The position numbers and the translations under genes are program-made. A DNA stretch of 64,000 nucleotides from Acidobacteriota bacterium (GTDB taxonomy: Bacteria; Acidobacteriota; Polarisedimenticolia; J045), in NCBI GenBank assembly GCA_003696075.1, contig RFHH01000164.1:12749-76748 (forward strand), read 5' to 3'. The notes under the pieces were generated by a model that was given only the letters and a program-made list of their open reading frames with translations, did not search any database and was not told the origin of the DNA. Every line of letters begins with the position of its first letter. The stretch's first letter is position 1. Below, piece by piece: positions 22,729-53,587 of the stretch.

Positions 22729-23997
22729 ATGACCAGCGGATCCGAGAGCGCCGAAGCCCGCCCGTCCCGCGGAGACGGACCGGACCGGTCGCGGCCGCGC
22801 GTGCTGGTGCTCGACGAGGAGCCGCCCGTCCCGCCCCACACGGGGAAGAAGATCCGCACGCTGGCGCTGTTGTCCCGCCTGGCGGACAGGTACGAGATCG
22901 ACTTGCTCGTTCACGGGCGAGGCGTTTCGCCGGATCAAATCGAGGCGATGCGCCGGATCGGCGTGGCGCTCCACCTCGCTCCCGGCGGGCTGCCGCCGAA
23001 GCGCGGGCCGGCCTTCGTGGCGCGGGTCGCGCTCAGCCTCGCGTCGCCCTATCCCTACAGCGTCTCCAGCCATCACCGGCCCGGCTACCGCCGCGCGCTC
23101 CGTTCGATGCTCCGGCGGAACCGCTACGACGTGTTGCACTGCGAGTGGACACCGTACGCGCGCTACCTCGTGGACCGGCTGCCGCAGGCCGTCGTCTCGG
23201 CTCACAACGTGGAGTGCGAGGTGTGGCGGCGCTTGTCCAGAAGCGAACGCTTCCCTCTCCGGCGGTGGCTGTTCGCGCTGCAGGCGAAGAGGATGGAGAA
23301 CTTCGAGCGGGCGGTCTTCGCGCGGGCCGGCTGGGCGACAGCGGTGTCCGAGCGCGACGCCGGCACTCTCCGTTCTTTCGGCTGCCGGCGCGTGACCGTG
23401 GTTCCCAACGGCGTCGATCTCGACTACTTCCAGCCTCAGGGACCGCCGCCGGCGGGCCGCGACCTCGTCTTCACCGGCTCGCTCGATTGGCGGCCGAACC
23501 AGGAAGCGGTGGAGTGGTTCGTGCGGGAGGTCTTCCCGCGCCTGCGCACGCTGGGCTGCCGCTTTTCGATCGTCGGCCGCCGGCCGCCGCCCGAACTGGA
23601 TCGTCTCGCGCGCGCCTCGGGCGGCGCGATCGAGCTCGCCGCGGACGTGCCCGACATCAGGCCTTACGTCCGCCGGGCCGCCGCCTACGTCGTCCCGCTC
23701 CTCTCGGGGGGCGGCTCGCGGCTCAAGATCCTCGAGGCGATGGCCATGGAGCGCCCCGTGATCTCGACCCCGGTCGGCGCCGAAGGTCCCGACCTGGCGC
23801 CGGGGCGGCACTACCTCGCGGCGGCCGACGCCGCCGGGTTCGCGGCCGCGGTGGAGCGCGTGCTGGTCGACCGGGAGCTCGCCCTTCGCCTGGCGGCCGA
23901 GGGCCGGAGGTTCGTCACGGCGCACCACGGATGGGACTCGATCGCCGGCCGCCTCGCCTCGGTCTGGGAGGAGGCCGCGGGGGCCCCTGGAGGGTGA
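22729..23997 (+). CDS. GT4-family glycosyltransferase
   Basis: The E-X7-E region (RLKILEAMAMERPVISTPVGAEG) and the glycosyl-transferase N-terminal region are present. The start was chosen at MTSGSES. Confidence 0.8.
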   Translation: MTSGSESAEARPSRGDGPDRSRPRVLVLDEEPPVPPHTGKKIRTLALLSRLADRYEIDLLVHGRGVSPDQIEAMRRIGVALHLAPGGLPPKRGPAFVARVALSLASPYPYSVSSHHRPGYRRALRSMLRRNRYDVLHCEWTPYARYLVDRLPQAVVSAHNVECEVWRRLSRSERFPLRRWLFALQAKRMENFERAVFARAGWATAVSERDAGTLRSFGCRRVTVVPNGVDLDYFQPQGPPPAGRDLVFTGSLDWRPNQEAVEWFVREVFPRLRTLGCRFSIVGRRPPPELDRLARASGGAIELAADVPDIRPYVRRAAAYVVPLLSGGGSRLKILEAMAMERPVISTPVGAEGPDLAPGRHYLAAADAAGFAAAVERVLVDRELALRLAAEGRRFVTAHHGWDSIAGRLASVWEEAAGAPGG

Positions 23998-24019
23998 GGC
24001 CCGCCGGCCGGAACGGCTT

Positions 24020-25165
24020 TCAGCGCGGCGACACCTGGCCGAGGAGTGCGGCGATGTGCTCGCGATAGCGGCGCGCCACCCGGCTCGCCTCGAACTCCGC
24101 GGCCTTTTCTCTCGCCGCGTCCCCGAACCGCCCGCGCAGCTCCGGCTCGGCGACGAGCCGCCGCCAGGCAGCAGCCAAGGCCTCCGGATCGCCGGCCGGG
24201 ACGAGAAACCCGGTCGCTCCGTGCTCGACGAGTTCCGGGTTTCCTCCGGTATCGGTGGCCACCACCGGCAGGCCGGCCGCCATGTACTCGAGGATCGTGT
24301 TCGACAGGCCCTCCGTGTCGGAGGTGAGCGTTCCGATCTGCCACGTCGCCATGAGGCTCCGGCTGTCCTCGCGCTGTCCCCGGAAAGCGACGCGGCCGGC
24401 GATCCCCAGCTCGCGGGCGAGCCGCTCCAGCCGGACGCGCTCCGGCCCGTCGCCGACCACTTCGAACCGCGCCTCTTCCGGTCCGAGACGCCTCGCGGCT
24501 TCGAGGAAGATGTCGACGCGCTTCACCGGCCGCAGGTTGGCCGCGATCCCGATCGTCACCGGCGAGCCCGCCGCGGGCGCGGCCCGGGGAACGCCGTCGA
24601 TCTCGACGAGGTTGGGCAAGTAGGCGACGGGAGGGGCCCACGCCGGCGCCTCGCCGGCGAGGATCTCGGCGGCCCGGCGGCTGTTGCACAGGATCTCGGT
24701 GGCGTGGCGGCTCACCCGCCACCGGGCTCGCAGGAACCACGGCGGCTCGGTGGCCCCGAAGTTTCTCTGCGCGAAGATTCGGACCGGAACGGCGGCTTCA
24801 CGCGCCGCCTTGAGCCCGACCCACCGCCCCATCGGAAAGAACGCGATGAGTGCGTCGGGGCGGAGGTCCCGAAGCCAGCTCGCGATCCGGCGCTGCGCGA
24901 GGGGGTAGAGGTAGCGCTTGAGGGAGACGCCCAGCACGACGCTCCCTTCCGGAAGTTGCAGCCTCGGGGAAGGCGCCCGCATGAGCGCCAGCACGGGCGC
25001 GACGCCCCACCGGGGTAGATGCCGGCAGAGGAGCAGCACCTGGCGTTCCGTCCCGGCCGTCCACCCGCAGATCTCGTCGATCAGCAGGACGAGCACGATG
25101 CGGCCGGGCCTACCGGGCCGCGCGCCGGCGGCGGTCGCGCCGCGAGTGGGTCGGACGTCGATCAT
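24020..25165 (-). CDS. GT4-family glycosyltransferase
   Basis: The motif SDTEGLSNTILEYMAAGLPVVATDTGGNPELVEHGATGFLV is characteristic of GT4. The start at MIDV overlaps (ATGA) the upstream gene's stop. Confidence 0.8.
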   Translation of the reverse strand: MIDVRPTRGATAAGARPGRPGRIVLVLLIDEICGWTAGTERQVLLLCRHLPRWGVAPVLALMRAPSPRLQLPEGSVVLGVSLKRYLYPLAQRRIASWLRDLRPDALIAFFPMGRWVGLKAAREAAVPVRIFAQRNFGATEPPWFLRARWRVSRHATEILCNSRRAAEILAGEAPAWAPPVAYLPNLVEIDGVPRAAPAAGSPVTIGIAANLRPVKRVDIFLEAARRLGPEEARFEVVGDGPERVRLERLARELGIAGRVAFRGQREDSRSLMATWQIGTLTSDTEGLSNTILEYMAAGLPVVATDTGGNPELVEHGATGFLVPAGDPEALAAAWRRLVAEPELRGRFGDAAREKAAEFEASRVARRYREHIAALLGQVSPR

Positions 25166-26094
25166 CGCCTCGCGGGAATCAGCCGCACGTTGTCGATCCA
25201 CAGGCTCGCCGGCGGCGACTCCGGAAGGATGAAAACTAGCGCATCCAGGCGGCCGAGGTCGAGATCCCTGCCCGAGGGCGTGCGGCGAAGCCGCGCGATC
25301 GGCAGGCGCACCGAGGAGCCCCCCACCGGAATCTCGATCGTCTCCTCGTGACGGGTCGCCGGGTTCGCGTAACCGCGACGGTCCGTCAGGCGTAAGCGGA
25401 GAGGAACGGTGTGCGGGCCGGGGTTCCACGCTTCGAAAGCGAGGCTTTCGGCCGAGCCCCAGTCTCCGGGCGGATCGTGGAGGACCAGGTAGGCCGGTCC
25501 CGGTCCCGCGCGGCGGATCTTCAGGCTGCTCCGGCCCTCTGCCGACCAGAGCGCCGAGAGAGAGGCCCGGCACCGGCCTCGCGCCATCCAGGCGTACAGT
25601 TCCGCCCGGCGCTCGAAGCGTCCCAGCAGCGGGACCTCCGCGTGGCGGAGCCGCTCCGATCGGAACAGCGCGGCGCCTTCCGCGACCGGGACGAGGGCCG
25701 CGGCGGCCGCGGCGGCCACCGCGAGGCGCGACGCCCCGCCGGCCATCCACAAGGCGGCGGCCACGGCCCCGACGATGTCATGGGCGACGTCCAGCAAAGA
25801 AGGGGTCCCCCAAGCGGTGAGCGCCTGGATCGCCTCGACGGCGATGCCGGCCGAAACGGCGGCGGCCGCGGCGCGGGCGGCCCGCCGCCGCCCCGACCCG
25901 GGCCCGAAACCGAGGAGGAGAACCAGCGCCGCCGCCCACGGGATGTGCGCCAGGTCGCGCATGAGGGCCAGCGCGGGAATCCTCGACGGGCCGAGGGGAT
26001 CCAGAATCGGGGCGAGTCCGAGCGCGGCTGCCGCTACGATGCGCGCGGGCCCGGTCCGCCGGCGTCCCGGCGCCGCCGCCAGGGGGCCGCTCAT
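25162..26094 (-). CDS. VanZ-like membrane protein with a C-terminal extracytoplasmic domain
   Basis: An N-terminal polytopic region resembling VanZ (DIVGAVAAALWMAGG) is followed by a soluble C-terminal domain of about 180 aa. Only the C-terminal 311 aa of the track ORF are protein-like. The start overlaps the upstream GT2 stop. Confidence 0.5.
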   Translation of the reverse strand: MSGPLAAAPGRRRTGPARIVAAAALGLAPILDPLGPSRIPALALMRDLAHIPWAAALVLLLGFGPGSGRRRAARAAAAAVSAGIAVEAIQALTAWGTPSLLDVAHDIVGAVAAALWMAGGASRLAVAAAAAAALVPVAEGAALFRSERLRHAEVPLLGRFERRAELYAWMARGRCRASLSALWSAEGRSSLKIRRAGPGPAYLVLHDPPGDWGSAESLAFEAWNPGPHTVPLRLRLTDRRGYANPATRHEETIEIPVGGSSVRLPIARLRRTPSGRDLDLGRLDALVFILPESPPASLWIDNVRLIPARR

Positions 26095-27140
26095 CGGGGT
26101 GGCGGAAGGTGGCCGCGCCTGAGGAGCGACCAGAGAAACCCGGTGCCGAGCCCGAAGTGGATCACCGGGAAGATCGCCGCGAAGTGGGGCCAGCGCCACC
26201 ACCCGTGCCGCCGGGCCAGGCGGGTCGACTCGATCAGCACGAGGAGTCCGTAGGCGGCTACGGGCACGGCCCACAGTGCCGCCGCGGGTAGGCCCCCGAG
26301 GAGGAAGGCGGGGCCGCTCAGGGTCCAGGCCACGAATCCCGGCAACGCCGCCTGCTCCCAAGTCAGACGGCGTGGGTGCTTGAGCAGGAACTTGCAGCGG
26401 CCGAACCCGTAGCGGAACATCTGCCGCCACAGCCCCGGAAGGTCCCGGCGCGCGTGGTAGAAGACGGTCAGGCGCGGGCTGATGTAGCAGCGCATCCCCG
26501 CCTCGTCGAGTCTCGTGTTGAACTCGACGTCCTCGCAGGCGTCGAAATCCTCGTCCAGGTAACCGATCTTCTCGAAGACCTCCCGCCGGTAGGCTGCGCC
26601 GACGCTCGCCGCGGGAACGAACCCCTCCGCGTCGCTGTAGATGAACGAACTCCGGCTGTGTCCCAGCCAGGAAGCCCTCGCCAAGGCGATCGATTCCGAC
26701 CAGCGGCTTCCGGGCACCGGGATCAGCGGCTGCGGCCGGCCGAGGCACTCCGCGCCGGTCCTCTCGAAGATCTCCGCCACGGTGCGGAGAAGATCACGTC
26801 CCGGAATCTCCACGTGCCCGTCGATGACGAGGGCGTAGTCTCCCCGCGCGTTCCGGAAACCGACGTTCCTTCCGGCGGAGCTGCGGATGCCCGGATTGTC
26901 GAGCAGGCGGACGCGCGTGTCGCGAGCGGCGACCGCCGCGACGACTCGACGGGTTCCGTCCGTGCTCCTTCCGTCGCACACCAGAATCTCGAAGCGGTCC
27001 TCCGGGTAGTCCTGCTCCAGGAGTCGCTCGAGGACCCTGCCGACCGTCGCCTCCTCGTTCCGCACCGGAACGACGACGGAAATGAAGGGCGGCCCGCTCC
27101 CCTGCCGCGAGGGACGGTCCCGTGGCACGCGCGCGCTCAT
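26091..27140 (-). CDS. GT2-family glycosyltransferase with a C-terminal transmembrane segment
   Basis: The motifs ISVVVPVRNEE...LVCDGRSTDGT...DGH are typical of the GT2 fold. The start at MSARVP overlaps the upstream GT4 stop. Confidence 0.8.
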   Translation of the reverse strand: MSARVPRDRPSRQGSGPPFISVVVPVRNEEATVGRVLERLLEQDYPEDRFEILVCDGRSTDGTRRVVAAVAARDTRVRLLDNPGIRSSAGRNVGFRNARGDYALVIDGHVEIPGRDLLRTVAEIFERTGAECLGRPQPLIPVPGSRWSESIALARASWLGHSRSSFIYSDAEGFVPAASVGAAYRREVFEKIGYLDEDFDACEDVEFNTRLDEAGMRCYISPRLTVFYHARRDLPGLWRQMFRYGFGRCKFLLKHPRRLTWEQAALPGFVAWTLSGPAFLLGGLPAAALWAVPVAAYGLLVLIESTRLARRHGWWRWPHFAAIFPVIHFGLGTGFLWSLLRRGHLPPPR

Positions 27141-28354
27141 CCGCCGCCCGACAGCCGCTCGGCAGCGCGCGCGACGGCGGCGTGGCCGGCGGCCCGAGGA
27201 GCGAGGGCGTCGTAGATGGCGGCGAGGGCCCTGGTCTGCCGCTCCGGATCGAACTCGCGCGACAGACGTTCCCGGGCGCGTTCCGCGCGCCGCTGCGCCT
27301 CCGCCGGCGATCGCAGGGCCTGCTCGATCGCCCCCGCGAGCGCCTCCGGATCGTCGGGGGGGACCGTCCACCCGGTTTCCCCGTCCACGACCGCTTCGGG
27401 GACCCCCCCGACCTCGGTGGCCACCACCGGGGTTCCCACGCGGAACGCCTCCAGGATCACGTTCGGCAGCCCCTCGCTTCGGGAGGGATTCACCAGCAGG
27501 TCGGCACCCGCGATCCAGCGGGGAAGCTCGTGTCGGAACCCGGCGAGCCGAACCGAGTCGGCGAGCCGCTCGCGCCGAATGAGCCGCTCCAGGCGGCGGC
27601 GCCGCGCCCCTTCCCCGAGAATCGCCGCGAGGACCGGCCTTCCCCGTTCCCGCAGGTGCGCGACGGCGCGAACCAACACGTCCTGTCCCTTCTCGGGGCT
27701 CAGCCGTCCCGCGGCGATCAACACCGGCCGCGGATCTCCTTCCCATCCCAGCGCTCGCCGCACGTCGATCGGGGCACCGAAGCCGTCTTCCCGGACGTCG
27801 GCGTTTCGGACCACGCAGATGCGCTCCGCCCGTACGCCGATCCGCAACGCCAGCCGCCGCATCGCCTCCGATACCGCCACGACCCGGTCCGCCCGCCGGA
27901 GCGACCAGCGGTAGGCGCGCTCGTACAACCTCACCTTGAGATTCTCGCCGGTGAGGCCGCGGAGGAAGGCGATGCGCGGTATCCCGACCTTCGCCGCCGC
28001 GAGGTGCCCGTAGATGTCCGCCTTGTAGCCGTGGGTCGCGAGGACCTCGACGCGCATCTCGCTCAGGAAACGGGCCAACTGGCGCGCATTGTCGGGGCTG
28101 AACGGCGAGGCGGTATCGACGAGGAACGCCGGCCGCCCGCGTTCTCGGGCCCTTTCGACGATCTCGACCGCCGGCCGGCCCTCCCTGAACGAGCCGATCA
28201 CCGCCTCCCAGCCGTAGCGGCCGAGACGCGCGGCGTGCCCCAGGATCTGCCTCTCCGGACCGCCGAAGAAATTGCTGGCGATCAGGTGCGCGACGCGCCT
28301 CCGCGCAGGAGGGGTCTGTGGGCCGGGGCGCGCGGGCGAACGACGTCGCGTCAT
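27137..28354 (-). CDS. GT4-family glycosyltransferase
   Basis: The motif SRSEGLPNVILEAFRVGTPVVATEVGGVPEAVVDGETGWTV is characteristic of GT4. The start was chosen at MTRRRS. Confidence 0.8.
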   Translation of the reverse strand: MTRRRSPARPGPQTPPARRRVAHLIASNFFGGPERQILGHAARLGRYGWEAVIGSFREGRPAVEIVERARERGRPAFLVDTASPFSPDNARQLARFLSEMRVEVLATHGYKADIYGHLAAAKVGIPRIAFLRGLTGENLKVRLYERAYRWSLRRADRVVAVSEAMRRLALRIGVRAERICVVRNADVREDGFGAPIDVRRALGWEGDPRPVLIAAGRLSPEKGQDVLVRAVAHLRERGRPVLAAILGEGARRRRLERLIRRERLADSVRLAGFRHELPRWIAGADLLVNPSRSEGLPNVILEAFRVGTPVVATEVGGVPEAVVDGETGWTVPPDDPEALAGAIEQALRSPAEAQRRAERARERLSREFDPERQTRALAAIYDALAPRAAGHAAVARAAERLSGGG

Positions 28355-29512: not shown

Positions 29513-30622
29513 ATGGAAGCGTTCGCCCTGGAGACCCTCGAGAGCGTCGGGTCTCTCCGCGCCGAGTGGGACGACCTGCTCGCACGCTGTCCCGGCTCGC
29601 CGCTGTTTCGGACCCCCGAGTGGGTGCTCACCTGGTACGAGGTCCTGGCGGACCGCTTCCGACCGCTGGTCCTCGCCTTCCGCGAGTCCGGGCGGCTGAT
29701 CGGGCTCCTCCCGCTGGCACGGCGCCGGGACGGCCGGAGGATCGAATTCGCGGGGGAGGCGCTCGCCTCCGGCGACCACCTCGGTCTCGTCGCGAGAGCG
29801 GAGGAGCTGGATCGACTCTGGGACGCGGCGGCGGGCCTCCTCGAGCCGGAGCTCCGGCGGGCGCGCGTCCTCAGGCTGGCGATGCTCGATCGCGGACCCG
29901 AGGTGGAGGCCGCACGTCGAGCGGCGGACCGGCGCGGCTGGACCGTCGTCGCCTCCGCCGGCATCGAGGCGCCCGTGGCGCGGCTTCCCTCCGATCCGGA
30001 AGACCTCCTCCGCCGGCTCCGAAAGAAGCGGCGGGCCGACGTGAGACGGCGCCGGCGGGATCTCGAACAGCGGGAAGGCGCCGCCTTTTCCACGATCACC
30101 GGCGCCGAGGACGTCGGCACGGGCCTGGAGATCCTGTTCGCGCTTCATGCGGCCCGCTGGCGGAGCCGTGGCAGCGAAGGGACGCTCGGCGACCCTGTCA
30201 AGCGCCGCTTCCTCGGCACCTTCTGCCGGTCGGCCGCGGAACGTGGATGGCTGCGCCTCCACGTGTGCCGCGCGCGCGGGAGACCGATCGGCGCTCTGCT
30301 CGCCTTTCACCGCGACGGCACCGCGAGCTATCTGCAATCGGGCTGGGATCCGGAGTTCCGCCGCTACGGAGTGGGAGAACTGCTCGTGCTCTTCGGCATG
30401 GAGGAGGCGGTCCGCGAGGGCCTGCGGTGGTTCGACTTCCTGCGCGGCGACGAGCCGTACAAGGCGCGCTGGTCCACCGAGACCCGCACGCTGGTCACGC
30501 TGGAAGCCGCGTGCCGCCTCCCCGGGCGGGCCGAACTCCGCCTGCGCGCGCTCGCCTCCGGCCTCCGGCGCCGCCTGCGTGCCCGACTCGCGGGTGACCG
30601 CCGCGCGGAGGGCGGCCGGTGA
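29513..30622 (+). CDS. FemAB-family / CelD-like (Acetyltransf_6) acyltransferase, PEP-CTERM-system-associated type
   Basis: The GNAT-like C-terminal region (FLGTFCRSAAERGWLRLHVCRARGRPIGALLAFHRDGTASYLQSGWDPEFRRYGVGELL) is typical of FemAB-related exopolysaccharide proteins. Confidence 0.7.
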   Translation: MEAFALETLESVGSLRAEWDDLLARCPGSPLFRTPEWVLTWYEVLADRFRPLVLAFRESGRLIGLLPLARRRDGRRIEFAGEALASGDHLGLVARAEELDRLWDAAAGLLEPELRRARVLRLAMLDRGPEVEAARRAADRRGWTVVASAGIEAPVARLPSDPEDLLRRLRKKRRADVRRRRRDLEQREGAAFSTITGAEDVGTGLEILFALHAARWRSRGSEGTLGDPVKRRFLGTFCRSAAERGWLRLHVCRARGRPIGALLAFHRDGTASYLQSGWDPEFRRYGVGELLVLFGMEEAVREGLRWFDFLRGDEPYKARWSTETRTLVTLEAACRLPGRAELRLRALASGLRRRLRARLAGDRRAEGGR

Positions 30623-33007: not shown

Positions 33008-33225
33008 CCGCCGGTCGCCGGCCCTGGCACCGTGCGACCCGGACCGGATGTCCGCCCCCCGTGGGTCCGATCGTGGAACGCCTGTCCATCGTGGCATTAC
33101 TACCTTCGGCAAGCCGTTCGCGCCAGAGACGGCTCGGAAGCGCGTGCCGGGCGGAGGATGTGGTGGATAATCCGCAGCGCCCGCCAGACCGCCGGTGGCC
33201 GGCGGCCGCGGGGCATGGACCCTCG

Positions 33226-39787: not shown

Positions 39788-39865
39788 TCCGGCGGCCCTT
39801 GCCCGCCCTCCCGCCGCTGCCGAATATTGCCGGGGGGGCCGCGGCCCGATTCCGGAGGGTGGGCG

Positions 39866-45608: not shown

Positions 45609-46939
45609 GCGGAGCGGAACGGAGCCCGGCCGTGCCCGCCGGCGGCACGGCGGTCGTGGGGGGCGGCATGCTCGGCATCGGGGCCGCTCTCCTGCTCGCG
45701 GAGGCGGGGCGCCGCGTCACCCTGTTCGAGCGCGCCGACTGCCTGGGCGGCCTTGCCGCCGCCTGGTCGCTCGGACCCGTCCGGTGGGACAGGCACTACC
45801 ACGTGATCCTCGAATCGGACGAAGAGACGCTCGGACTCCTGGAGAAGCTCGACCTGGCCGGTCGGGTGGTCTGGAGCCGTCCGGGAACGGGCTGCTTCGC
45901 CGGGGGGCGCCTCTTCCCGGTCACCTCCGCCGCCGACATGCTGCGCCTTCCGGCGCTCGGCCTCGTCGACAAGTTCCGTTTGGGGCTGACCGTGCTCCGG
46001 GCCGCGCACGGCGGACGCCGTGGCCTCGACGAGATGACGGCGGAGCGCTGGCTGGTGCGTTGGTCGGGCAAGCGCGCCTACACGGCGTTCTGGAAGCCGC
46101 TTCTCGTGGCCAAGCTCGGGGCCTCGCATGGCCGAGCCTCCGCCGCGTTCATCCAGGCCACGATCCGGCGCCTGTACACCGCCCGCCGCGGCGCTTCGAA
46201 GCGCGAGAGGTTCGGTTACGTGCGCGGGGGCTACGCGGTGGTGCTCGACCGGGCCGAGCGGGCGCTTCGAGACCGCGGCTGCACGCTGCGGCTCGGCGCC
46301 GGCGTGAGCAGCATCGTCCGCGAGGGTTCGCGCGTCGCGGTGGCCGTGGGGGATCGCGTCGACCTCTTCGACGACGTGATCCTCACCCTGCCCCCTCCCA
46401 TCGCCGCCCGGCTGTGCCCGCAGCTCGACCACGACACCCGGAAGAAGCTGGAGTCGATCGAGTACATCGGGGTGATCTGTGCTTCTCTGCTGCTGGACCG
46501 CGCGCTGAGCGGTTACTACGTCACCAACGTGCTCGACGAGGGGCTGCCGTTCACCGCCGTCATCGAGATGACCGCCTGCGTGGATCCGGGCGACCTCCGA
46601 GGCCGCCACCTGATCTACCTCCCCCGCTACGCGCCATGGGACGATCCGTTCTGGGACCTGGACGACTCCGCCATCCGGGAAAGCCTGCTCGCGGGGCTCG
46701 AGCGGGTGCACCCCGGGCTGGGAGGTGCGCGCATCGAGGCCTTCCGCGTCTCGCGGCAGCGCTTCGTGTTGCCGCTCCCCGCCCCGGGCCTCGCCCGGCG
46801 CGTTCCCGGCATCGAGCCGGCGATCCCGGGGATCTGGATGCTGAGCTCCGCGCAGATCCGCGACGGAACGCCGAACGTGAACGACACCCTCCGCCTGGCG
46901 CGCCAGGGCGTGGCGGCCCTGCTCGGGGCAGTCTCGTGA
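45605..46939 (+). CDS. FAD/NAD(P)-binding oxidoreductase (amine-oxidase / PPO-like fold)
   Basis: An N-terminal dinucleotide-binding motif (AVVGGGMLGIGAALLLAEAGRRVTLFER) is present. ATGA overlap. Confidence 0.65.
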   Translation: MSGAERSPAVPAGGTAVVGGGMLGIGAALLLAEAGRRVTLFERADCLGGLAAAWSLGPVRWDRHYHVILESDEETLGLLEKLDLAGRVVWSRPGTGCFAGGRLFPVTSAADMLRLPALGLVDKFRLGLTVLRAAHGGRRGLDEMTAERWLVRWSGKRAYTAFWKPLLVAKLGASHGRASAAFIQATIRRLYTARRGASKRERFGYVRGGYAVVLDRAERALRDRGCTLRLGAGVSSIVREGSRVAVAVGDRVDLFDDVILTLPPPIAARLCPQLDHDTRKKLESIEYIGVICASLLLDRALSGYYVTNVLDEGLPFTAVIEMTACVDPGDLRGRHLIYLPRYAPWDDPFWDLDDSAIRESLLAGLERVHPGLGGARIEAFRVSRQRFVLPLPAPGLARRVPGIEPAIPGIWMLSSAQIRDGTPNVNDTLRLARQGVAALLGAVS

Positions 46940-46953
46940 AGGAGGGGCAGGCC

Positions 46954-47946
46954 GTGACCGCGCGGGCGAACCGGATGCCGGCGACCTTGTCGCTGGACCT
47001 CGACAACGAGTGGTCCTACCTCCGCGTCCGCGGCGATGCCCGATGGCGCTCGCATCCGTCCTACATTCCGCGGCTGATCGACCTCGTTCTGCCGATCCTC
47101 GACCGGCTGAACGTTTCGATCACGTTCTTTGTCGTGGGCCGGGACGCGGAGATCGACGCCCACCGGGCAGCGCTCGAGGAGGTGGCGCGCCGCGGACACG
47201 AGATCGGGAATCACTCGCACGAGCACGAGCCTTGGCTCCACCTCTACGCCGAGAAGGATCTCGCGGCGGAGATCGAGCGGTCCACGGCGGCGCTTCGAAA
47301 CGCCACGGGGCGCAGCCCGGTGGGCTTCCGGGGCCCCGGCTTCAGCGTCAGCCCCGCCGTGCTCCATGTCCTGTCGCGGGCCGGCTACGTCTACGACGCC
47401 TCGACGCTACCGACCTTCATCGGCCCGCTGGCGCGACTGTACTACCTGCGGACGGCGCCGGTCGCAGGGGAGGAGCGGGCCAAGCGCGCCCGGCTCTTCG
47501 GGCGATTCTCCGACGGATGGCGGCCCCTGCGGCCCTACCGGTGGCGGCTCGGGCCCCGGACGATCCTCGAGTTGCCGGTCACCACGGTGCCGCTGCTCCG
47601 CATCCCCTTCCACGTGAGCTATCTGCTTTTCCTGGCGCGGCGGTCTCACCTCGTGGCGACCCTCTACTTCCGCTTCGCGCTCCGTCTCTGCCGCATCCGA
47701 CGGGTCTCCCCCTCACTGCTGCTCCATCCCCTGGATTTCCTCGGAGGCGACGAGGTGCCCTCGCTCCGCTTTTTCCCCGCGATGGACCTGCCCGGCGACC
47801 GGAAACGGCAGTGGGTCTCGGCCTGGCTCGACGCCTACGTCCGCGACTTCGATGTGCTGCCCCTTGGCCGGTTCGCCGAAGAGCTCTCCGGGGCCGAGCT
47901 GCCGGAGTTTCCGCCCGGCTCAACCGCCTCGCCGCCGATCTCGTAG
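46954..47946 (+). CDS. Polysaccharide deacetylase (NodB-homology domain)
   Basis: The motifs LSLDLDNEW...ITFFVVGRD...GHEIGNHSHEHE are present. A GTG at 46954 follows AAGGAGGGG; the alternative GTG at 46936 overlaps the upstream stop. Confidence 0.7.
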   Translation: MTARANRMPATLSLDLDNEWSYLRVRGDARWRSHPSYIPRLIDLVLPILDRLNVSITFFVVGRDAEIDAHRAALEEVARRGHEIGNHSHEHEPWLHLYAEKDLAAEIERSTAALRNATGRSPVGFRGPGFSVSPAVLHVLSRAGYVYDASTLPTFIGPLARLYYLRTAPVAGEERAKRARLFGRFSDGWRPLRPYRWRLGPRTILELPVTTVPLLRIPFHVSYLLFLARRSHLVATLYFRFALRLCRIRRVSPSLLLHPLDFLGGDEVPSLRFFPAMDLPGDRKRQWVSAWLDAYVRDFDVLPLGRFAEELSGAELPEFPPGSTASPPIS

Positions 47947-49413
47947 ACGCACCACTCGCCGAACGCCGCGAGTTTCCGCAGCGGCAGCTCCGCGTCGATG
48001 ACGACGTGCGTGGCACCGTACCGGCGCGCCGCCTCGCGCACCGCGCCGGCGGTCAGCCGCCGGTAGCGCTCGGCCAGTTCCTCCTCTCCGGTTCCGCGAC
48101 CCACGGGCCCGAGCAGCAGATCGCAGCGCTCGCGCCATTCCCGGAACGAGGTGTAGGGGTGATAGACGCGGCTGGCCACGATGGCGCGCCGCGAGACGGA
48201 CCAGTTGCCCCGGAACCAGGGCGGCGCCACCAGAACCGCGTCCTCCGGAAGGCGGTCGCGGCACCAGCCCAGGGCCCGTTCGAGATCGGTCGGCGCCCGG
48301 AACCAGCTCGTCAGAGCCGGTCTGGCGGCGTCGGCGAGCCCGAACAGAGGACTGGGCACAGCGGCGAGCGCGGCGATCAGGAACGCTCTGAGGGCCATGC
48401 CCGCCTGCCGCCATCCCCCCTCCGCCGCCCATGCGCAGGCCCCGAGGAAGAAGAACAGCGGCGTCAGCAGGGGGAAGAGGCGGAACGGAAAGGTGGCCAG
48501 GAAGCGGTCGAAGCCCGCGACCCGGGCGACGCACCCCGCGGCAAAGACGGACGCGGCGGCCGCTTGCCACACGGTGGCGGCGCGCCAGAGGGGGCGCTCC
48601 CACAGTTGCGATCGGGCGACGAGGACGTTCACCGCGAACAGCACGCCGAGGAGGACGAGGCGCCTCACCGGCCAGGTCGCCGGGTCGAGGTGCTCGGGCA
48701 TCTTGACGAGCGCCATGTAGCGCCACTCCTCCGCCGACGTCACCCCCCCGGGCGCGAGAAGCAGCGGGAGGATCCCGACGGCAGCCGGGACGGCGAACAG
48801 CGCCGCCGCCGCTGCGGCGCGGCGGGCGGACGGGGGCCGCCGCAGCGCCGGTAGGAGGGTGATCGCCCCCCATCCTCCCACCGAGGGATGAAGGGCGGTG
48901 GCGAGGCCCGCCCACAGCCCGGCCTTCTCCACGGCGCTCCGGCTCACCGCCCGGAGCGACAAGAAAAGGGCCGCGTAAGCGAACGTCTTCGCCTCGAAGG
49001 TCTTGAGCATCCAGCTCCGGGCCACGATCGACTGGCCCGAGCCGAGCCACAGCGCCAGGGCAAGAGCGGCCAGCGGCGCGGTGAGCCCAGCCTCGCGCGC
49101 GACGACGAGGAGGACCGCGAGTCCGCCAATCCATCCGGCGAGACGCCCCATCGCGCCGAAGGTCTCGATGTCGAACGGGATGCTCAGCGGACCGGCGATG
49201 TGATTGAACAACCAGTGCTCGGGTGCCGGCTGGCGGAGCGTCCAGTCGTTCGCGAGGAAGTCCGGGTGCCCGAGGCGGTAGAGCCGGATCAGGTAGAAGT
49301 TCTCGTTACCCCACGGGACCGCGCCTCCGTGCTGGAGGCCGGTCAGGACGAGAAGGACGGCGAGCGCGGCCATCCAATGGTGCCGGCGTCCCGGCGTGCG
49401 CTTGTCGTCCATG
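47835..49413 (-). CDS. Polytopic membrane protein, possible GT-C-fold glycosyltransferase / polymerase
   Basis: The ATG at 49411-49413 follows GGAGGGAGGG. The protein has many transmembrane helices and a C-terminal soluble domain. The 3' end overlaps the convergent deacetylase by about 110 nt. Confidence 0.5.
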
Positions 49414-49444: not shown

Positions 49445-50629
49445 TCAACCGCGCGCCGCACTCCGCGGCCTCCAGAACTCCCTCCCGAGAACGAGATCGC
49501 GATGCCGGCGCAGCACGTGGGCCATCCAGTCTACGTCCTCGTCGCGCAGATCCTGGTGCACGGGAAGCTCGACCACCGTCCGGCGCCACAGGTCCACCTG
49601 AGCGAAACGGCCCGGGGGGCAGGCCGGGTGATGGCGAGACCAGAACGAGATCGTCTCGATGCCGGCCTCGGCCAGGCGCGCCCGCAGCGCCGCCCGGTCG
49701 CGCGCGAGCACCGGGTAGGAGAGCGGGCAGGTCCCCTCGCCGAGCGGGGCGAGCGGACTGGGGGCCGCCTCGCCGGCCAGCTCGTGCAGCCGGAGGAAAT
49801 TTCGCCGCCGGCGGCTCACGATCTCCGCCCGGCGGGCGGCACGCGCCAGCCGCGCCACCCACGGGGAGACGCCGAGATCGAGCATCTCAGGATCGAGCTC
49901 CTCGGTGTCGACCCCGACCACCTCCGCTCTTCCGAGGCGCTTGAGCAGGCGGGCCGTGCGGGTGGCCAGGTCGGCGGCTCCCCGCCGGAGCCTCCCCCCG
50001 CCGAGCCGCGCGGCGTCGAGCAGGCGATGCAGCGTGAACGCGGCGGTGGAGAGTCGATCGGGCCTGCGGGCCGGCCCGGGAGGGGCGTCGCCGCCGCGGT
50101 TCCAGCGGAGCATCCCCCCGTGCGGGACCGGAAGCGTCTTGTAGAGGCAGAAAATCGCGAAGTCGCCGAAGGAGCCGAGCGGCCGCCCCCCCTCCTCGCC
50201 GTAAAGCGACAGCGCGCAGTCCTCGATCAGCGGGACACCCGCCTCGTCGCACAGGCGCCGGATCTCGGCGATCGGCTGCGGACGTCCCAGGTAGTGGGTG
50301 ACATACACCGCGGCGGGCCCTGCCGCGATCCGCCGGTGGAGCTCCTCGGGATCGGCGCGCAGGTCGGGACGAATGGGATAGAAGTCGAAGCGAACGCCCA
50401 GAACCCTGAGAACCTCGACCTCGATGCCGTGATGATAGGCCGGCATGAGAACCGTGCTGCCCGGACCGAGGCCCAACGCGCGCGCCCCTGCCCACAGCGC
50501 GTTGCGGGCCATGTAGTAGAAGCGCGATCGAGGATCGTCGAACGGCGGATCCGGAGCAGCCGGCTCCCTGGGGAGAACGTCGCCTGGGCGCAGCACCGGG
50601 TCGAACGTCACGTAGCGCGGCTTCGCCAT
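49445..50629 (-). CDS. DegT/DnrJ/EryC1-like PLP-dependent aminotransferase-fold protein
   Basis: The motifs MPAYHHGIEVEV and IEDCALSLYG are present. The start was chosen at MAKPRYVTF. Confidence 0.6.
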   Translation of the reverse strand: MAKPRYVTFDPVLRPGDVLPREPAAPDPPFDDPRSRFYYMARNALWAGARALGLGPGSTVLMPAYHHGIEVEVLRVLGVRFDFYPIRPDLRADPEELHRRIAAGPAAVYVTHYLGRPQPIAEIRRLCDEAGVPLIEDCALSLYGEEGGRPLGSFGDFAIFCLYKTLPVPHGGMLRWNRGGDAPPGPARRPDRLSTAAFTLHRLLDAARLGGGRLRRGAADLATRTARLLKRLGRAEVVGVDTEELDPEMLDLGVSPWVARLARAARRAEIVSRRRRNFLRLHELAGEAAPSPLAPLGEGTCPLSYPVLARDRAALRARLAEAGIETISFWSRHHPACPPGRFAQVDLWRRTVVELPVHQDLRDEDVDWMAHVLRRHRDLVLGREFWRPRSAARG

Positions 50630-51750
50630 CTCGCCGTCCAACGCTTGAGCCGCGGCACCGCGCCGAACTTCACCGCCTCGTGGAGCCGGCCCGCCGCCGT
50701 CGGAAGATAGAGGTACACCCAATAGACATCCCGGAGGGCCGGACGCCATTCCTGCTTGGCGGGCGTGACGTCGCCGAGAAAGTCGAACTCGCTCAGCCCT
50801 CTCCGGAAGGCGTCCCGGAGCAGTTCCTGCCACAGCAGCTGGCCCGGAGAATACCGCGCCATCTCCGGCGCGTACCCGATCTTCAGGCAGTACTCGCGGC
50901 CTTCGACTTCCAGGTTGAGATTGAACGCGATGCGGCGGCCCCCGGCGGTGAGGAAGCTGAGCCGCAGCCATCCGAGTTCGGCGGCGCGCGCGCACCACTC
51001 GGCGTAGAACGACGCCAGCTCCGGCCGGCAGCGGATCGCGCTGCCGCGGCGCCCCTTCCAGCCGGCCGCCTCGATCTCGAGAGCGTCGCCGAGAGCGCCC
51101 GCCAGCCGCTCTCCTCCCGTGACCGTTTCCACGGCGACTTCACCTTCCCGCTTCTCGAGGTTCCGGCGGCGCCGCCGAAGGTTGGCGCGGAACTTGGTGC
51201 GAAGACCCGCCTCGTAGGCCTCCCAGTCCCCTTCGATCCGGACGTAGGGAGACGGTACGGCCTTCCAGAGCCGGAACCGGCCGCCCGCCGCCTGCCAGCC
51301 CTCCAGCCAGGGGCGCAGACTCCGCGCGTCTCCCGGGACGAGCTCGAGGACGGCGGCGTCGCCGCGGTGGCGCAGCCACCGGAACAACGCCTCTCCGGCC
51401 TCCCCTGCGCGTTTCGGATCCACGAGCGGGGTGAACCGGTACGAGTGGTGGTTCGTCAGGGAGCGCCACAAGCGGGCGCGCGCCAGGCGCGCCGCGCCCG
51501 GGGGAACCACCAGCGGAAGGCCGAGCGCCGGCTCTCCGGCCGCGCGCAGCAGGAGCACCGCCGTGCGTCCTTCCGGTCCGAAGTGTTTCCAGAAGATCGA
51601 GACCCAGGAATGGCTGGCGAACGGATCGGCTGCGCCCACCGCGCGCCGTAACGCCTCCCATTCGGCCGCGCAGGCGTCGAAACGGCCGCGGTCCGCGATC
51701 GGCTCGACCTCGCAGTTCGCCGCGGCCGCCCGGCCCGCGGGCTCCGGCAT
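50608..51750 (-). CDS. FemAB-family / CelD-like (Acetyltransf_6) acyltransferase, second copy
   Basis: The protein is paralogous in architecture to 29513-30622 (ELGWLRLSFLTAGGRRIAFNLNLEVEGREYCLKIGYAPEMARYSPGQLL). Confidence 0.65.
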   Translation of the reverse strand: MPEPAGRAAAANCEVEPIADRGRFDACAAEWEALRRAVGAADPFASHSWVSIFWKHFGPEGRTAVLLLRAAGEPALGLPLVVPPGAARLARARLWRSLTNHHSYRFTPLVDPKRAGEAGEALFRWLRHRGDAAVLELVPGDARSLRPWLEGWQAAGGRFRLWKAVPSPYVRIEGDWEAYEAGLRTKFRANLRRRRRNLEKREGEVAVETVTGGERLAGALGDALEIEAAGWKGRRGSAIRCRPELASFYAEWCARAAELGWLRLSFLTAGGRRIAFNLNLEVEGREYCLKIGYAPEMARYSPGQLLWQELLRDAFRRGLSEFDFLGDVTPAKQEWRPALRDVYWVYLYLPTAAGRLHEAVKFGAVPRLKRWTARWRSRAT

Positions 51751-51832
51751 GATGTCCGCTCCCCTCGGCTCCGGCGCGCGCCGCACGCGCGTCGCGATCG
51801 CGCCCCGGGTTCCATAGTAACTTAGGCGCCAC

Positions 51833-53587
51833 GTGAGAGAAGACGAGCGCCACCGCCGGCCGACCGCGCCGCCGCCCGCCGGGGCCGGTTCCGCCTCCGC
51901 CCTCGCGGCGCGCGCGCTGCCGCCGCTGATCCTGTTGCTCGGACTGGCCCTTCACGGCATCGGGGTGCTCCAGCCGCTCGACCAGCCGCACTGGCGAACG
52001 ATCGACGACGCGGCGATCGCCCGGAACTTCGCCCGGGAGGGGCTCGACCCGGCGTTCCCGCGGGTCGACTGGCGGGGAGAGGGACCGGGCTTCGTCGAGA
52101 TGGAGTTCCCGTTCCTTCCGTGGGCGCTGGGCGTCGCGCACCGTGTCGCGGGCGTGCCGCTCCGGTGGGGACGCCTGCTGGCCTTTCTCGCCACGTGCGC
52201 GGCTGCCCTGATCTTCGACGCGCTGGCACGGCGGCGCCTGCCGCCGGCGGGCCGCGCGGTGGCGTTGGCCGCCTTCGTCCTCAATCCCACCCTCGCCGGC
52301 GTGTCGAACGAGATCCAGCCGGACGCGCTGATGCTCGCGCTGGCGCTCGGCGCCATCCTGAGCTTCGAGGCGTGGCTGTCGGCCCGGAGCGGCCGGCTGT
52401 GGCCGGCGTCGCTCCTCGCCGCTCTGGCCGTGCTGGCGAAGGCGCCGGCCGCTCTGATCCTGCCGGTCGTCGCCGTCCGCTCGCTCCGCCACCAGGGAGG
52501 GTGGCGCAAAGGCTTGTCGGGCGCCGCTCGCGTGAGCCTGGCCGCCGCGCTTCCCGCGGCCGTCTGGTACGGCCACGCCCACGGACTCTGGCTCCGTTAT
52601 GGGAACTCGCTCGGCTTGAGCGACGAGTCTCACTGGATCGGTGTCGACATGCTCGGGCATCCCGGCTTCTTGGCCGACATCGCGAAGCTCGAGTTCGCCG
52701 CGGTGATCCTGCCCGGCGGCGCGCTCCTCCTCCTGCTGGCGATCGCCGCCCGGTGGCGGGGCCGCGGATGCGACCTGGAGGTGGCCTGGCTCGGCGCGGC
52801 CTACCTGTTCTACCTCGCAGCAGGACGGACCACCGGGGACGCCTGGGCAGCCTACTACCACCTCGCCAGCCTCCCTCCGACAGCGCTCATGGTCGGTGCC
52901 GCCGCCCAGTTCCTCCTGGAGGCGGGGCGCGGGCGCGCTCTCCTTTTCGCCGCCCCGGCCGCCGCGATCGGAGGGGCGGCGTGGGGCCTCGCGCGCTCCG
53001 CCGACTCCGGCCTTTCTCCGCCGGCGCTCGTCTCGGCGGCCGCCGCCGGGGCCGCGGCGGGTGCGCTCGCCGCGGCGTTCCTCCTGCTCCCGGGGCGCGC
53101 GTCCGGTTCGCGCCGCACGGTGCTCGCGGCCCTCGGAGCCCTGGCTGCGACGGTCCTGGTTCTCGACGGGGCGAGGCGGAGCTGGTGGCACGACCGCCCG
53201 CGGCCTCCCCACGCTCTCCACGAGTGCGCACGATCCTTCGCGCCGCTCCTCGATGGCGCCCGCCGGATCGTCGCCAGCGGCGGCGACTGCCGCGACCCCA
53301 CGGGACGCCCGGTCGCCTACCACAAGCCCTACATGTTCTTCTGGACCGGGACCACGGGCTTTTCCGTCTGCCGCCAGGAGCTGGGATCGGTCGACGTGTC
53401 GAGGTTCCTCGCGGCGGGAGCCCGCTGGATGATCGTCGAGGTGCAGGACCTCGACGCCGCTCCTGGCGGGTGGCGGCTCGTCGAGCGTCACCGCGTGCGC
53501 GCGCGGTGCCCGGAGGCCTTCCTGATCGACCTGAGCGAGGAGCCGGTCACGCCGGCGAACGGAGCGAGTGGCGGGCGAGGAGGGTGA
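51833..53587 (+). CDS. GT-C-fold membrane glycosyltransferase (ArnT/PMT-like, GT39/GT83-like)
   Basis: The polytopic N-terminal half has the loop-1 motif FAREGLDPAFPRVDW typical of ArnT/PMT families. The start is GTG. Confidence 0.6.
   Translation: MREDERHRRPTAPPPAGAGSASALAARALPPLILLLGLALHGIGVLQPLDQPHWRTIDDAAIARNFAREGLDPAFPRVDWRGEGPGFVEMEFPFLPWALGVAHRVAGVPLRWGRLLAFLATCAAALIFDALARRRLPPAGRAVALAAFVLNPTLAGVSNEIQPDALMLALALGAILSFEAWLSARSGRLWPASLLAALAVLAKAPAALILPVVAVRSLRHQGGWRKGLSGAARVSLAAALPAAVWYGHAHGLWLRYGNSLGLSDESHWIGVDMLGHPGFLADIAKLEFAAVILPGGALLLLLAIAARWRGRGCDLEVAWLGAAYLFYLAAGRTTGDAWAAYYHLASLPPTALMVGAAAQFLLEAGRGRALLFAAPAAAIGGAAWGLARSADSGLSPPALVSAAAAGAAAGALAAAFLLLPGRASGSRRTVLAALGALAATVLVLDGARRSWWHDRPRPPHALHECARSFAPLLDGARRIVASGGDCRDPTGRPVAYHKPYMFFWTGTTGFSVCRQELGSVDVSRFLAAGARWMIVEVQDLDAAPGGWRLVERHRVRARCPEAFLIDLSEEPVTPANGASGGRGG

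Follow-up and report, generated by a model that had tools for sequence, protein, structure and literature searches.

A glycan locus of 25 genes (22729-54740) lies in a 64-kb stretch of contig RFHH01000164.1 from an uncultured Acidobacteriota bacterium, hereafter called the window, and contains a gene cassette centred on a fusion of a CE4/DUF3473 deacetylase to a glycosyltransferase (GT) of the polyprenyl-phosphate sugar synthase type. Among the described systems that resemble this cassette, the Arn pathway (ArnC/ArnD/ArnT) is itself established, with de-acylation by ArnD at the lipid-linked stage. Francisella Flm is a related modification of lipid A by an aminosugar linked to undecaprenyl phosphate (Und-P), and Bordetella Lgm and mycobacterial PpgS/Rv3779 represent further related Und-P-aminosugar systems.

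The Wbp/Vim pathway of Porphyromonas gingivalis and Tannerella forsythia follows the same logic as that proposed below, comprising WbpB/E/D-type steps towards a 2,3-diacetamido sugar, the CE4 protein VimE, the GNAT protein VimA, and installation by GT4 enzymes (Veith et al. 2020, PMC7468200). VimE strips the 2-N-acetyl group of the Wbp product, and VimA, a GNAT related to TIGR03019, adds Ser or Gly; the same authors noted clusters with vimA/vimE and wbp genes in exosortase-free bacteria and speculated on a connection with XrtA loci (PMC7468200). For XrtA/EpsH loci, Haft et al. (2006, PMC1569441) described EpsH as the one specific component; members of the deacetylase, GT, chain-length, and sugar-transferase families were reported from PEP-CTERM-negative genomes as well. 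The Caulobacter holdfast (Hfs) system is of the Wzx/Wzy type, in which the cytoplasmic CE4 protein HfsH deacetylates the lipid-linked oligomer and the FemX-like GNAT HfsK modifies it (PMC5362036, PMC8449245).

The present locus is probably (at about 0.6) a composite, namely a Wzx-dependent surface-glycan locus that carries an Arn-like aminosugar cassette, and not a self-contained exosortase/exopolysaccharide (EPS) system. The original prediction had placed a polysaccharide-type biosynthesis locus at 22729-53587, from the ATG of the first GT4 gene to the stop of a PMT_2 gene, and its inventory, including a CapK-like ligase, GT4 and GT2 enzymes, and Wzx, Wzy-like, and WecB proteins, was reproduced by gene calling and by Pfam and NCBIfam profile searches of the called genes. 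Genes were called via codon-position statistics and a codon-usage score, and start codons were inspected; raw lists of open reading frames (ORFs) were swamped by spurious frames because the G+C content of the window is about 72%. Four gene calls match independently recovered sequences: 41026-42801 (RMG43952.1), 45605-46939, and 51833-53587 each encode a protein found with the same sequence in NCBI under "MAG: Acidobacteria bacterium", and a gene called on a Logan contig (run SRR7905022) has the same product as 29513-30622. According to Pfam, the locus encodes three GT4, three GT2, four CE4, and two PF13480 domains. The two DUF3473 proteins and four deacetylases predicted earlier are all present (28351-29343, 41026-42801, 30619-31626, and 46936-47946), the fused nature of the second having gone unnoted.

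The cassette comprises 39899-47946 and 51833-53587. The genes from its first member to the right-hand end of the locus are:

39899..41029, + strand: UDP-HexNAc 2-epimerase of the WecB/WbpI family, first gene of the cassette (TIGR00236, 339 bits against a cut-off of 210; start uncertain)
41026..42801, + strand: fusion of an N-terminal CE4/DUF3473 deacetylase and a C-terminal GT2 of the polyprenyl-phosphate sugar synthase type (Pfam DUF3473, Polysacc_deac_1, and Glycos_transf_2 in one frame)
42731..43954, + strand: DegT-family sugar aminotransferase (PF01041, 300 bits)
43951..44991, + strand: GFO/IDH/MocA sugar dehydrogenase, WbpB/WlbA-like, of the 3-dehydrogenase class (Pfam; NCBIfam UDP-GlcNAc 3-dehydrogenase, 109 bits, below cut-off)
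44988..45608, + strand: left-handed beta-helix (LbH) N-acetyltransferase, WlbB/WbpD-like (top solved match WlbB, 3mqg, 9e-31)
45605..46939, + strand: FAD-dependent oxidoreductase with a fold of the protoporphyrinogen oxidase (PPOX)/phytoene desaturase (PDS)/amine oxidase type (PRK07233, 392 bits against a cut-off of 252)
46936..47946, + strand: CE4 deacetylase, invariant cassette member in an ArnD-like slot (Polysacc_deac_1, 75.7 bits; start uncertain)
47835..49412, - strand: multi-pass membrane protein, DUF6798 (PF20604, 27.2 bits; about 8 hydrophobic segments)
49445..50629, - strand: DegT-like PLP enzyme, partial match (PF01041, 75 bits, profile positions 50-184 only)
50608..51786, - strand: second FemAB/CelD-like acyltransferase of PF13480 (Acetyltransf_6, 103 bits)
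51833..53587, + strand: GT39/ArnT-like membrane glycosyltransferase of the GT-C class (PMT_2, 26.9 bits against a gathering score of 26.1; about 10 hydrophobic segments)
53547..54740, - strand: PF14907 nucleotidyltransferase-like protein, border gene (NTP_transf_5, 136.6 bits)

The fusion is the central element of the cassette. The best solved matches of its GT2 domain are an archaeal Dol-P-Man synthase (DPMS; 5mlz, 2e-21), three ArnC entries (about 1e-12), and GtrB (2e-8); the seven top solved-structure matches of the C-terminal domain are all DPMS, ArnC, or GtrB entries, and the DPMS alignment runs through the interface helices. NCBIfam matches of this domain to ArnC, DPhHxTase, and PpgS are all below cut-off. 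The fusion scores 259.1 bits against TIGR03006, just under the cut-off of 276, and the two DUF3473 copies of the locus fall into separate subfamilies, with higher scores of 28351-29343 against unfused homologues (median 242-246 bits versus 196 for the fusion type) and of the N-terminal domain of the fusion against fusion-type homologues.

With regard to the other cassette members, the aminotransferase is 52-58% identical to its counterparts in five other genomic contexts (L068, L082, L083, L089, and L090). The next solved matches of the acetyltransferase after WlbB are other 3-amino-sugar N-acetyltransferases, and its identity in other cassettes is 60-78%. The FAD enzyme was modelled by AlphaFold2 (AF2) with a mean confidence (pLDDT) of 92.9, and its top Foldseek matches are PPOX, PDS, and monoamine oxidase (MAO) at TM-scores of 0.75-0.81; a sequence search of the PDB found no match for it. 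The CE4 protein 46936-47946 is 45-56% identical to the CE4 protein beside the FAD gene in L082-L089 and L091. For the GT-C protein, a PDB sequence search gave no meaningful match, and all of its 22 homologues contain PF13231 or PF02366 and bear ArnT-like or GT39 names.

The adjacent DUF6798 protein (47835-49412) shows no relation to the PMT_2 family alignment by hhalign (probability 0.2), and its single-sequence AF2 model (pLDDT 39.7) is unusable. Two convergent gene pairs overlap, 46936-47946(+)/47835-49412(-) by about 110 nt and 30619-31626(+)/31544-33097(-) by about 80 nt, the latter being reproduced in the Logan gene calls; these overlaps may be real, or the stop positions may lie too far downstream because stop codons are rare at high G+C. 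The PF14907 protein, of a family that the original prediction had listed for assignment, is present just outside the range originally given; it overlaps the PMT_2 gene convergently by 41 nt, lies between the glycan locus and a lanthipeptide cluster, and could serve either.

A search with the fusion retrieved 2438 proteins at E<=1e-20, and the best 120 of the 2438 (48-56% identity) all have the same architecture. One of these 120 (P0058, 986 aa) joins CE4/DUF3473, GT2, and a DegT aminotransferase in a triple fusion and is one more "Rosetta-stone" connection between sugar-nucleotide synthesis and loading onto the lipid. Cassettes centred on the fusion are present in ten further genomes (contexts L068 and L082-L090), and a reduced string with an unfused GT2 (GT2-FAD-CE4) occurs in an eleventh (L091). 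In seven of the eight contexts centred on a fusion homologue (L082-L089), the fusion precedes the FAD oxidoreductase and the CE4 gene and is accompanied by a sugar-nucleotide module; in L088, only decayed remnants lie between fusion and CE4 gene. The FAD gene follows the fusion or GT2 gene in 10 of the 11 contexts, with L088 keeping a decayed remnant. A WecB-type gene holds the same position as here in L082 and L088.

The sugar-nucleotide module, which lies between or after the core genes, comes in two variants. Variant A (DegT-GFO-LbH) is shared by the window, L082, L083, L089, and L090, while variant B, composed of an AsnB-like amidotransferase and a UDP-sugar 6-dehydrogenase, is found in L085-L087 (for example, L086 10001-19305); L084 has the AsnB-like amidotransferase, and then its contig ends. 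Variant B suggests a uronamide, not a diamino, sugar. A GT-C of the PMT/PMT_2 type occurs in or beside the cassette in six contexts (L083, L085, L086, L087, L089, and L090) and also beside the L091 string. A Sulfotransfer_3 gene was seen after the PMT_2 gene in L085 and L087 and after an unannotated 546-aa gene in L088. In L091, the cultured planctomycete Pseudobythopirellula maris Mal64 (SJPQ01000001.1, about 820-841 kb), GT2, FAD, CE4, and PMT_2 genes stand in a row, the unfused GT2 being 32% identical to the C-terminal domain of the fusion and the FAD and CE4 proteins 45% each. The closest homologue of the window GT-C (41%) is encoded in L090, next to a fusion cassette and together with Wzx, a phosphoglycosyltransferase (PGT), GT4s, and a CapK-like gene, and L090 is the nearest overall analogue of this locus.

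An exosortase lies within 10 kb in one of the ten fusion contexts (L068, about 1.4 kb from the fusion), and three contexts (L083, L086, and L087) have only housekeeping genes around the cassette. The cassette is conserved independently of exosortase. The link between FAD enzyme and deacetylase reaches beyond the fusion subfamily, since in four metagenome-assembled genomes of Terriglobia/Acidobacteriaceae an FAD homologue (35-39% identity) directly adjoins, upstream, an unfused TIGR03006-type deacetylase (at about 8.2-10.9 kb in L002, L052, and L071 and at 1.2-4.0 kb in L008). In L002, a DPMS-like GT2 with 40% identity to the C-terminal domain of the fusion is encoded by a gene of its own, a few genes upstream.

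The likeness of the cassette to Arn (ArnB/ArnC/ArnD/ArnT) extends to a DegT aminotransferase, transient N-acylation, an Und-P-loading GT2, a CE4-type protein as putative de-acylase of the lipid-linked sugar, and a PMT_2 GT-C for periplasmic transfer of a cationic sugar. The sugar here, however, would arise by the 3-dehydrogenase/acetyltransferase route instead of the ArnA route; a DUF3473 CE4 protein fused to GT2 would serve as de-acylase, accompanied by a second CE4 and an invariant FAD oxidoreductase; no ArnE/F-like flippase is seen among the called genes; and the best score of the ArnD model is 18.9 bits. Compared with Wbp/Vim, the window holds all of the enzyme classes except WbpA and WbpS, so that a uronic acid or uronamide is not predicted, and the likeness is one at the level of enzyme class. 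The fusion of deacetylase and polyprenyl-phosphate synthase, the GT-C, and the FAD enzyme are absent from Wbp/Vim and present here, whereas the window lacks a type IX secretion system or sortase.

The substrates, the order of steps, and the acceptor envisaged for the cassette are as follows. The GFO dehydrogenase, the DegT enzyme, the WlbB-like acetyltransferase, and the WecB-type epimerase would convert UDP-GlcNAc to a UDP-2,3-diacetamido-2,3-dideoxy-hexose. The GT2 half of the fusion would load this sugar onto polyprenyl phosphate, and the fused DUF3473/CE4 half, the second CE4, or both would strip N-acetyl groups at the cytoplasmic face to leave free amines. After flipping, the GT39-type GT-C would pass the amino sugar to an acceptor in the periplasm. 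The freed amine may receive a new amino acid or acyl group from the two FemAB-like GNATs, in the Wbp/Vim fashion.

As to the sugar itself, a 2,3-diacetamido-hexuronic acid had been expected. The 2,3-diacetamido part of that expectation agrees with the WlbB/WbpD-like, GFO, and DegT proteins, but not the uronic part: no UDP-sugar 6-dehydrogenase (WbpA; UDPG_MGDP_dh) was found in the 64 kb, either by Pfam on the called genes or by tblastn with two cassette-linked dehydrogenases. The triad and the WecB-type epimerase would instead predict a UDP-2,3-diacetamido-2,3-dideoxy-hexose of gluco or, via the epimerase, manno configuration. A diacetamido hexose would be the parsimonious product because the window contains neither a 4,6-dehydratase nor a 6-dehydrogenase. 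The locus resembles the Pseudomonas aeruginosa O5 Wbp and Bordetella Wlb routes to UDP-ManNAc3NAcA in that WlbB and, by a slim margin, WlbA are the best solved matches of the acetyltransferase and the dehydrogenase and a WecB/WbpI-family epimerase is adjacent; it differs in the missing WbpA-type dehydrogenase and in an aminotransferase nearer to perosamine synthetase than to WbpE.

The site of deacetylation bears on a further proposal, namely that the product is a homopolymer like poly-N-acetylglucosamine (PNAG), partly de-N-acetylated after export and thus charge-tunable. The number of CE4 proteins and the weak matches of the GT2s and one CE4 to PgaC, PgaB, or IcaB are in its favour, yet the scores are far below cut-off (PgaC, TIGR03937, 37-52 bits versus 422; PgaB/IcaB 26-29 bits versus 322 and 248), PgaA/PgaD or IcaD are missing, and Wzx and Wzy_C indicate a lipid-linked heteropolymer. 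By inspection and hydropathy, the four CE4 proteins have no signal peptide or transmembrane (TM) segment; among these and the beta-helix protein 34496-36712, only the latter has a signal, of the Tat type. Post-export deacetylation in the PgaB/IcaB style is unlikely given this lack of signals in the CE4 proteins and the joining of one of them to a cytoplasmic GT2. The PNAG-like reading, which the original prediction had favoured, is therefore highly improbable and was rejected on the grounds of the Pga/Ica scores and the missing signal peptides. The sequences argue instead for CE4 proteins that would act in the cytoplasm on nucleotide- or lipid-linked intermediates. Published precedents for de-acylation in the cytoplasm or at the lipid stage are available in ArnC/ArnD/ArnT (PMC12690121), in HfsH with the FemX-like HfsK of the holdfast (PMC5362036), and in VimE/VimA of the Wbp/Vim pathway (PMC7468200).

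The remainder of the locus (22729-39787, module 1) consists of the following genes:

22729..23997, + strand: GT4 glycosyltransferase, stp1-like (Pfam Glyco_trans_1_4/Glyco_transf_4; top NCBIfam match TIGR03087, full length, 238 bits against a cut-off of 317; stp1-cluster HMM from related loci, 321 bits)
24020..25096, - strand: GT4 glycosyltransferase (Glycos_transf_1, 115 bits; TIGR03088, 127 bits against a cut-off of 409)
25162..26094, - strand: protein with a sub-threshold VanZ-like N-terminal motif (start uncertain, 26094 or 25962)
26091..27065, - strand: GT2 glycosyltransferase (Glycos_transf_2, 79 bits)
27137..28354, - strand: GT4 glycosyltransferase, stp2-like (Glycos_transf_1, 133 bits; TIGR03088, 137 bits against a cut-off of 409; GT4 cluster HMM from related loci, 311 bits; the same 405-aa gene called on Logan contig L001)
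28351..29343, - strand: unfused CE4 + DUF3473 deacetylase (DUF3473 and Polysacc_deac_1; TIGR03006, 315.9 bits against a cut-off of 276.2)
29513..30622, + strand: FemAB/CelD-like GNAT acyltransferase of PF13480, VimA/HfsK-like class (Acetyltransf_6, 120.6 bits)
30619..31626, + strand: CE4 polysaccharide deacetylase with an inserted segment (Polysacc_deac_1, 59.6 bits; weak NCBIfam matches to IcaB, PgaB, and HfsH, 26-29 bits)
31544..33097, - strand: membrane protein of the Wzy_C family, a polymerase, ligase, or O-oligosaccharyltransferase (PF04932, 66 bits; TIGR03097, 89 bits against a cut-off of 188; about 8 hydrophobic segments)
33226..34143, + strand: GT2 glycosyltransferase (Glycos_transf_2, 117 bits)
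34496..36712, + strand: secreted right-handed beta-helix protein (Beta_helix, NosD, CarboxypepD_reg; Tat-type signal; N-terminus RLDRRRFLAGTAVTIAAAIAPVAG)
36877..38259, + strand: PaaK/CapK-like adenylate-forming ligase (NCBIfam DVU_1553 family, 153 bits, and PaaK, 105 bits, both below cut-off; 33% identity to a CapK_C (PF27533) protein in L090)
38252..39787, + strand: Wzx-type flippase (Polysacc_synt, Polysacc_synt_3; about 10 hydrophobic segments)

In module 1, five glycosyltransferases would assemble a heteroglycan repeat on a polyprenyl carrier, Wzx would flip it, and the Wzy_C-family protein would polymerise or ligate it, polymerase and ligase being indistinguishable for this protein. To these would be added the CE4/DUF3473 deacetylase beside a FemAB-like GNAT and a second CE4, the CapK-like ligase, and the Tat-secreted beta-helix enzyme, which from its sequence is a candidate glycan lyase, hydrolase, or epimerase. 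Similarity to Hfs is seen in that HfsF is the only NCBIfam match of the window Wzx and that one CE4 weakly matches HfsH, all Hfs matches being far below cut-off; the window differs in lacking the Hfa anchor and the HfsA/B/D export genes and in having many more modification enzymes as well as the Und-P/GT-C cassette. Two expected families fared less well, as PF04892 (VanZ) reaches only 14.6 bits (E 0.051, gathering score 30.1) in 25162-26094, which has no other Pfam or NCBIfam match, and PF04230 was not found in any called gene. The G+C content dips slightly at 34001-40000 (0.69 versus 0.71-0.75 elsewhere), a segment spanning the beta-helix, CapK-like, and Wzx genes; apart from this, composition shows no sign of a recently acquired island.

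The absence of exosortase, EpsI, and PEP-CTERM proteins, noted earlier for the locus, holds for the whole 64 kb. For such tests, 80 loci around homologues of 28351-29343 were fetched, their ORFs were clustered, common clusters were named with NCBIfam, and cluster profile hidden Markov models (HMMs) were searched against all six-frame ORFs of the window. The clusters represented tyrosine kinase, TIGR03007, TIGR03027, TIGR03013, TIGR03015, TIGR03019, TIGR03087, exosortase (with a seed that matched XrtA, XrtD, TIGR02602, and TIGR03109), and an AsnB-type amidotransferase; tblastn was run against the window with two exosortases, AsnB, Bac_transf, Wzz, and the two UDP-sugar dehydrogenases mentioned above. 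Neither exosortase XrtA/EpsH (TIGR02602/TIGR03109) nor the EpsI/XrtA-system amidotransferase (TIGR03108) was found in the window by cluster HMM or tblastn. A pattern scan for a PEP-like motif, hydrophobic helix, and basic tail, distinct from the TIGR02595 HMM, gave no candidates among all ORF C-termini of the window. The related-locus cluster HMMs detected no TIGR03007, TIGR03027, TIGR03018, TIGR03015, or TIGR03013 component in the window, and six-frame cluster HMMs found no Wza-type export, Wzc/Tyr-kinase, or chain-length gene in the 64 kb. Bac_transf, Wzz, and Poly_export are missing among the called genes by Pfam, the first two being also tblastn-negative in the 64 kb, and no WecA-type PGT was found among the called genes by Pfam. 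The export, priming, and (if any) sorting genes of this locus therefore lie elsewhere.

These results bear on the possibility that the locus is the glycan-assembly half of an XrtA/PEP-CTERM EPS system, with exosortase, EpsI, substrates, and export genes elsewhere in the genome. Like XrtA/EpsH loci (PMC1569441), the window encodes a genuine TIGR03006 deacetylase and has a deacetylase beside a FemAB-like gene; its GT4s of the stp1/stp2 type and its Wzy_C protein, with TIGR03097 as best match, resemble those of such loci at scores below cut-off, and the order GT4 - deacetylase - FemAB-like resembles the canonical one. Moreover, 28351-29343 passes an equivalog model, the best NCBIfam matches of 22729-23997, 27137-28354, and 31544-33097 are TIGR03087, TIGR03088, and TIGR03097, an exosortase lies within 10 kb in 15 of the 80 TIGR03006-homologue loci, 18-33 of the same loci have XrtA-type chain-length, export, kinase, ATPase, or PGT genes, and L068 pairs the fusion with an exosortase. 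On the other hand, the system-defining genes (exosortase, EpsI, PEP-CTERM proteins, TIGR03007/03027/03018/03015/03013, and TIGR03019) are all missing from the window; 28351-29343 is the only window protein to pass an XrtA-specific model, and the remaining XrtA-family scores, listed above, are below cut-off. Of the earlier XrtA marker set, this one TIGR03006 member passes its model; the GT4s, the Wzy_C protein, and the second DUF3473 protein match XrtA-associated families at sub-threshold scores. The two proteins described as FemAB/CelD-like do belong to PF13480, but both fail TIGR03019 (29513-30622, 43 bits versus a cut-off of 260, with 48 bits against the TIGR03019 cluster HMM; 50608-51786, no match, with 15 bits against the cluster HMM), which places them in an unrelated subfamily. 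Since nine of the ten fusion contexts have no nearby exosortase, three of them standing alone among housekeeping genes, and since the accompanying families also occur in PEP-CTERM-negative genomes, EpsH alone being specific (PMC1569441), this explanation is unlikely. For the most part, the supposed exosortase hallmarks are better explained by a widespread cassette and are not XrtA-specific.

The composite reading leaves three destinations compatible with the data, namely EPS, O-antigen/lipopolysaccharide (LPS), and a protein-linked glycan. Without Wza/Wzc/Wzz and a priming transferase in the 64 kb, an O-antigen-type or protein-linked glycan fits at least as well as EPS. An LPS O-antigen or core-glycan cluster, joined by an LPS-modification cassette and making no secreted EPS, is possible, though somewhat unlikely. 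The lack of those genes is typical where WecA/Wzz are unlinked and Lpt is used, the Wzy_C family takes in WaaL ligases, and Und-P-sugar + GT-C systems (Arn, Gtr, Flm) characteristically decorate LPS. Further, 2,3-diacetamido sugars from WbpB/E/D-type enzymes are classical components of O-antigen/LPS. However, no lipid A or core genes (lpx, waa, kdt) are found among the called genes of the window, the best family matches lean to EPS-associated subfamilies, secretion of a beta-helix enzyme by Tat fits EPS processing better, and the PGT of the analogous loci L089 and L090 is of the Bac_transf and not the WecA type.

Protein O-glycosylation, in which a short Und-PP-glycan would be flipped by Wzx and put on proteins by the Wzy_C protein (PglL-like), PMT_2, or both, is quite improbable. 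The top NCBIfam match of the Wzy_C protein is indeed a "putative O-glycosylation ligase" (TIGR03097), PMT_2/GT39 is the protein O-mannosyltransferase family, and chain-length and export genes are absent from the window; yet the TIGR03097 score is less than half of its cut-off, the repeat unit looks complex, given six GT domains and numerous modification enzymes, and no candidate acceptor proteins were identified.

Several observations weigh against the composite reading with its Arn-like steps. The nearest solved structure to the aminotransferase 42731-43954 is perosamine synthetase, a C4 enzyme (3e-56; WbpE 5e-35), and the WlbA matches of 43951-44991 (3q2k and 3q2i, about 1e-24) barely exceed those to inositol dehydrogenases. 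The GT2 domain of the fusion has no TM helix. The fold search assigns no particular role to the invariant FAD enzyme, since PPOX, phytoene desaturase, and amine oxidases all share its fold. The GT-C of the window stands four genes away from the cassette, and sequence comparison does not relate it to the PMT_2 proteins in other cassettes, which are themselves mutually dissimilar. A small Und-P-sugar flippase of the GtrA/ArnEF type is not among the called genes, small ORFs having been searched less than exhaustively, and the cytoplasmic location of the CE4 proteins is based only on inspection and hydropathy. The 11 neighbourhoods form a small sample, selected with a preference for long contigs. 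Among GTDB species representatives, no close relatives were found, and locus-wide synteny is untraceable because the best identity to 28351-29343 is only 51%. Finally, a literature search returned no paper on DUF3473 and nothing relevant on TIGR03006.

A broader reading can be offered tentatively and is rather doubtful: the cassette, with its DPMS/ArnC-like GT2 (in many cases fused to a DUF3473 deacetylase), FAD oxidoreductase, CE4, and GT39-type GT-C, would represent an undescribed, widespread Arn-like pathway with swappable sugar-nucleotide modules (variants A and B), which installs a free-amine diamino or uronamide sugar on glycans of the envelope, and, by extension, the DUF3473 deacetylases of XrtA systems in general would act on polyprenyl-linked sugars, exposing an amine that is then amino-acylated and used as an acceptor for sortase-type protein attachment, as in Wbp/Vim.

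The flanks of the locus are occupied by other functions. To the left lies a glucokinase/PabC/PabB group (19508-22652), and directly to the right a class I lanthipeptide cluster (55022-62113, - strand). The precursor candidate of this cluster has a leader ending in a double glycine (...LSRVGG) and the core AQKRTVQIYCFTQANWCPHTFIDCPTITL. The other features recorded in the window are:

9735..11708, - strand: 657-aa ORF with good codon statistics, beside a LuxR-type regulator
15501..17714, - strand: DUF7467/CARDB surface protein, 737 aa
55022..55216, - strand: candidate lanthipeptide precursor, 64 aa, with a GGAGGA ribosome-binding site ahead
55402..57690, - strand: C39-peptidase ABC exporter
57687..60902, - strand: LanB dehydratase (Lant_dehydr_N, 427 bits; Lant_dehydr_C)
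60893..62113, - strand: LanC-like gene
62664..64000, + strand: Arf/Ras-like small GTPase fused to a GAF domain, continuing past the window end

No Pfam family was found for 9735-11708(-) or 13011-13400(+).

As an EPS-type locus, the one described here is ordinary; the added value lies in the weakness of its exosortase markers and in the embedded, undescribed Arn-like cassette. The names "XrtA system polysaccharide deacetylase" and "PEP-CTERM system associated" sit on thousands of DUF3473 proteins, and DUF3473 matches are weak evidence for an exosortase system because one large subfamily consists of fusions to a polyprenyl-phosphate sugar synthase and is accompanied by an FAD enzyme, a second deacetylase, and an ArnT-like GT-C, usually without a nearby exosortase. 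The fusion provides the first concrete, testable hint to the substrate of DUF3473 proteins, namely a lipid-linked N-acetyl sugar. If the broader reading were true, it would name the long-unidentified acceptor of exosortases. The cassette points to an uncharacterised route for cationic or amino-acylated envelope sugars in Acidobacteriota, Gemmatimonadota, Planctomycetota, and others, which bears on the surface charge and adhesion of soil bacteria, on resistance to antimicrobial peptides, and on the question of the exosortase attachment target.

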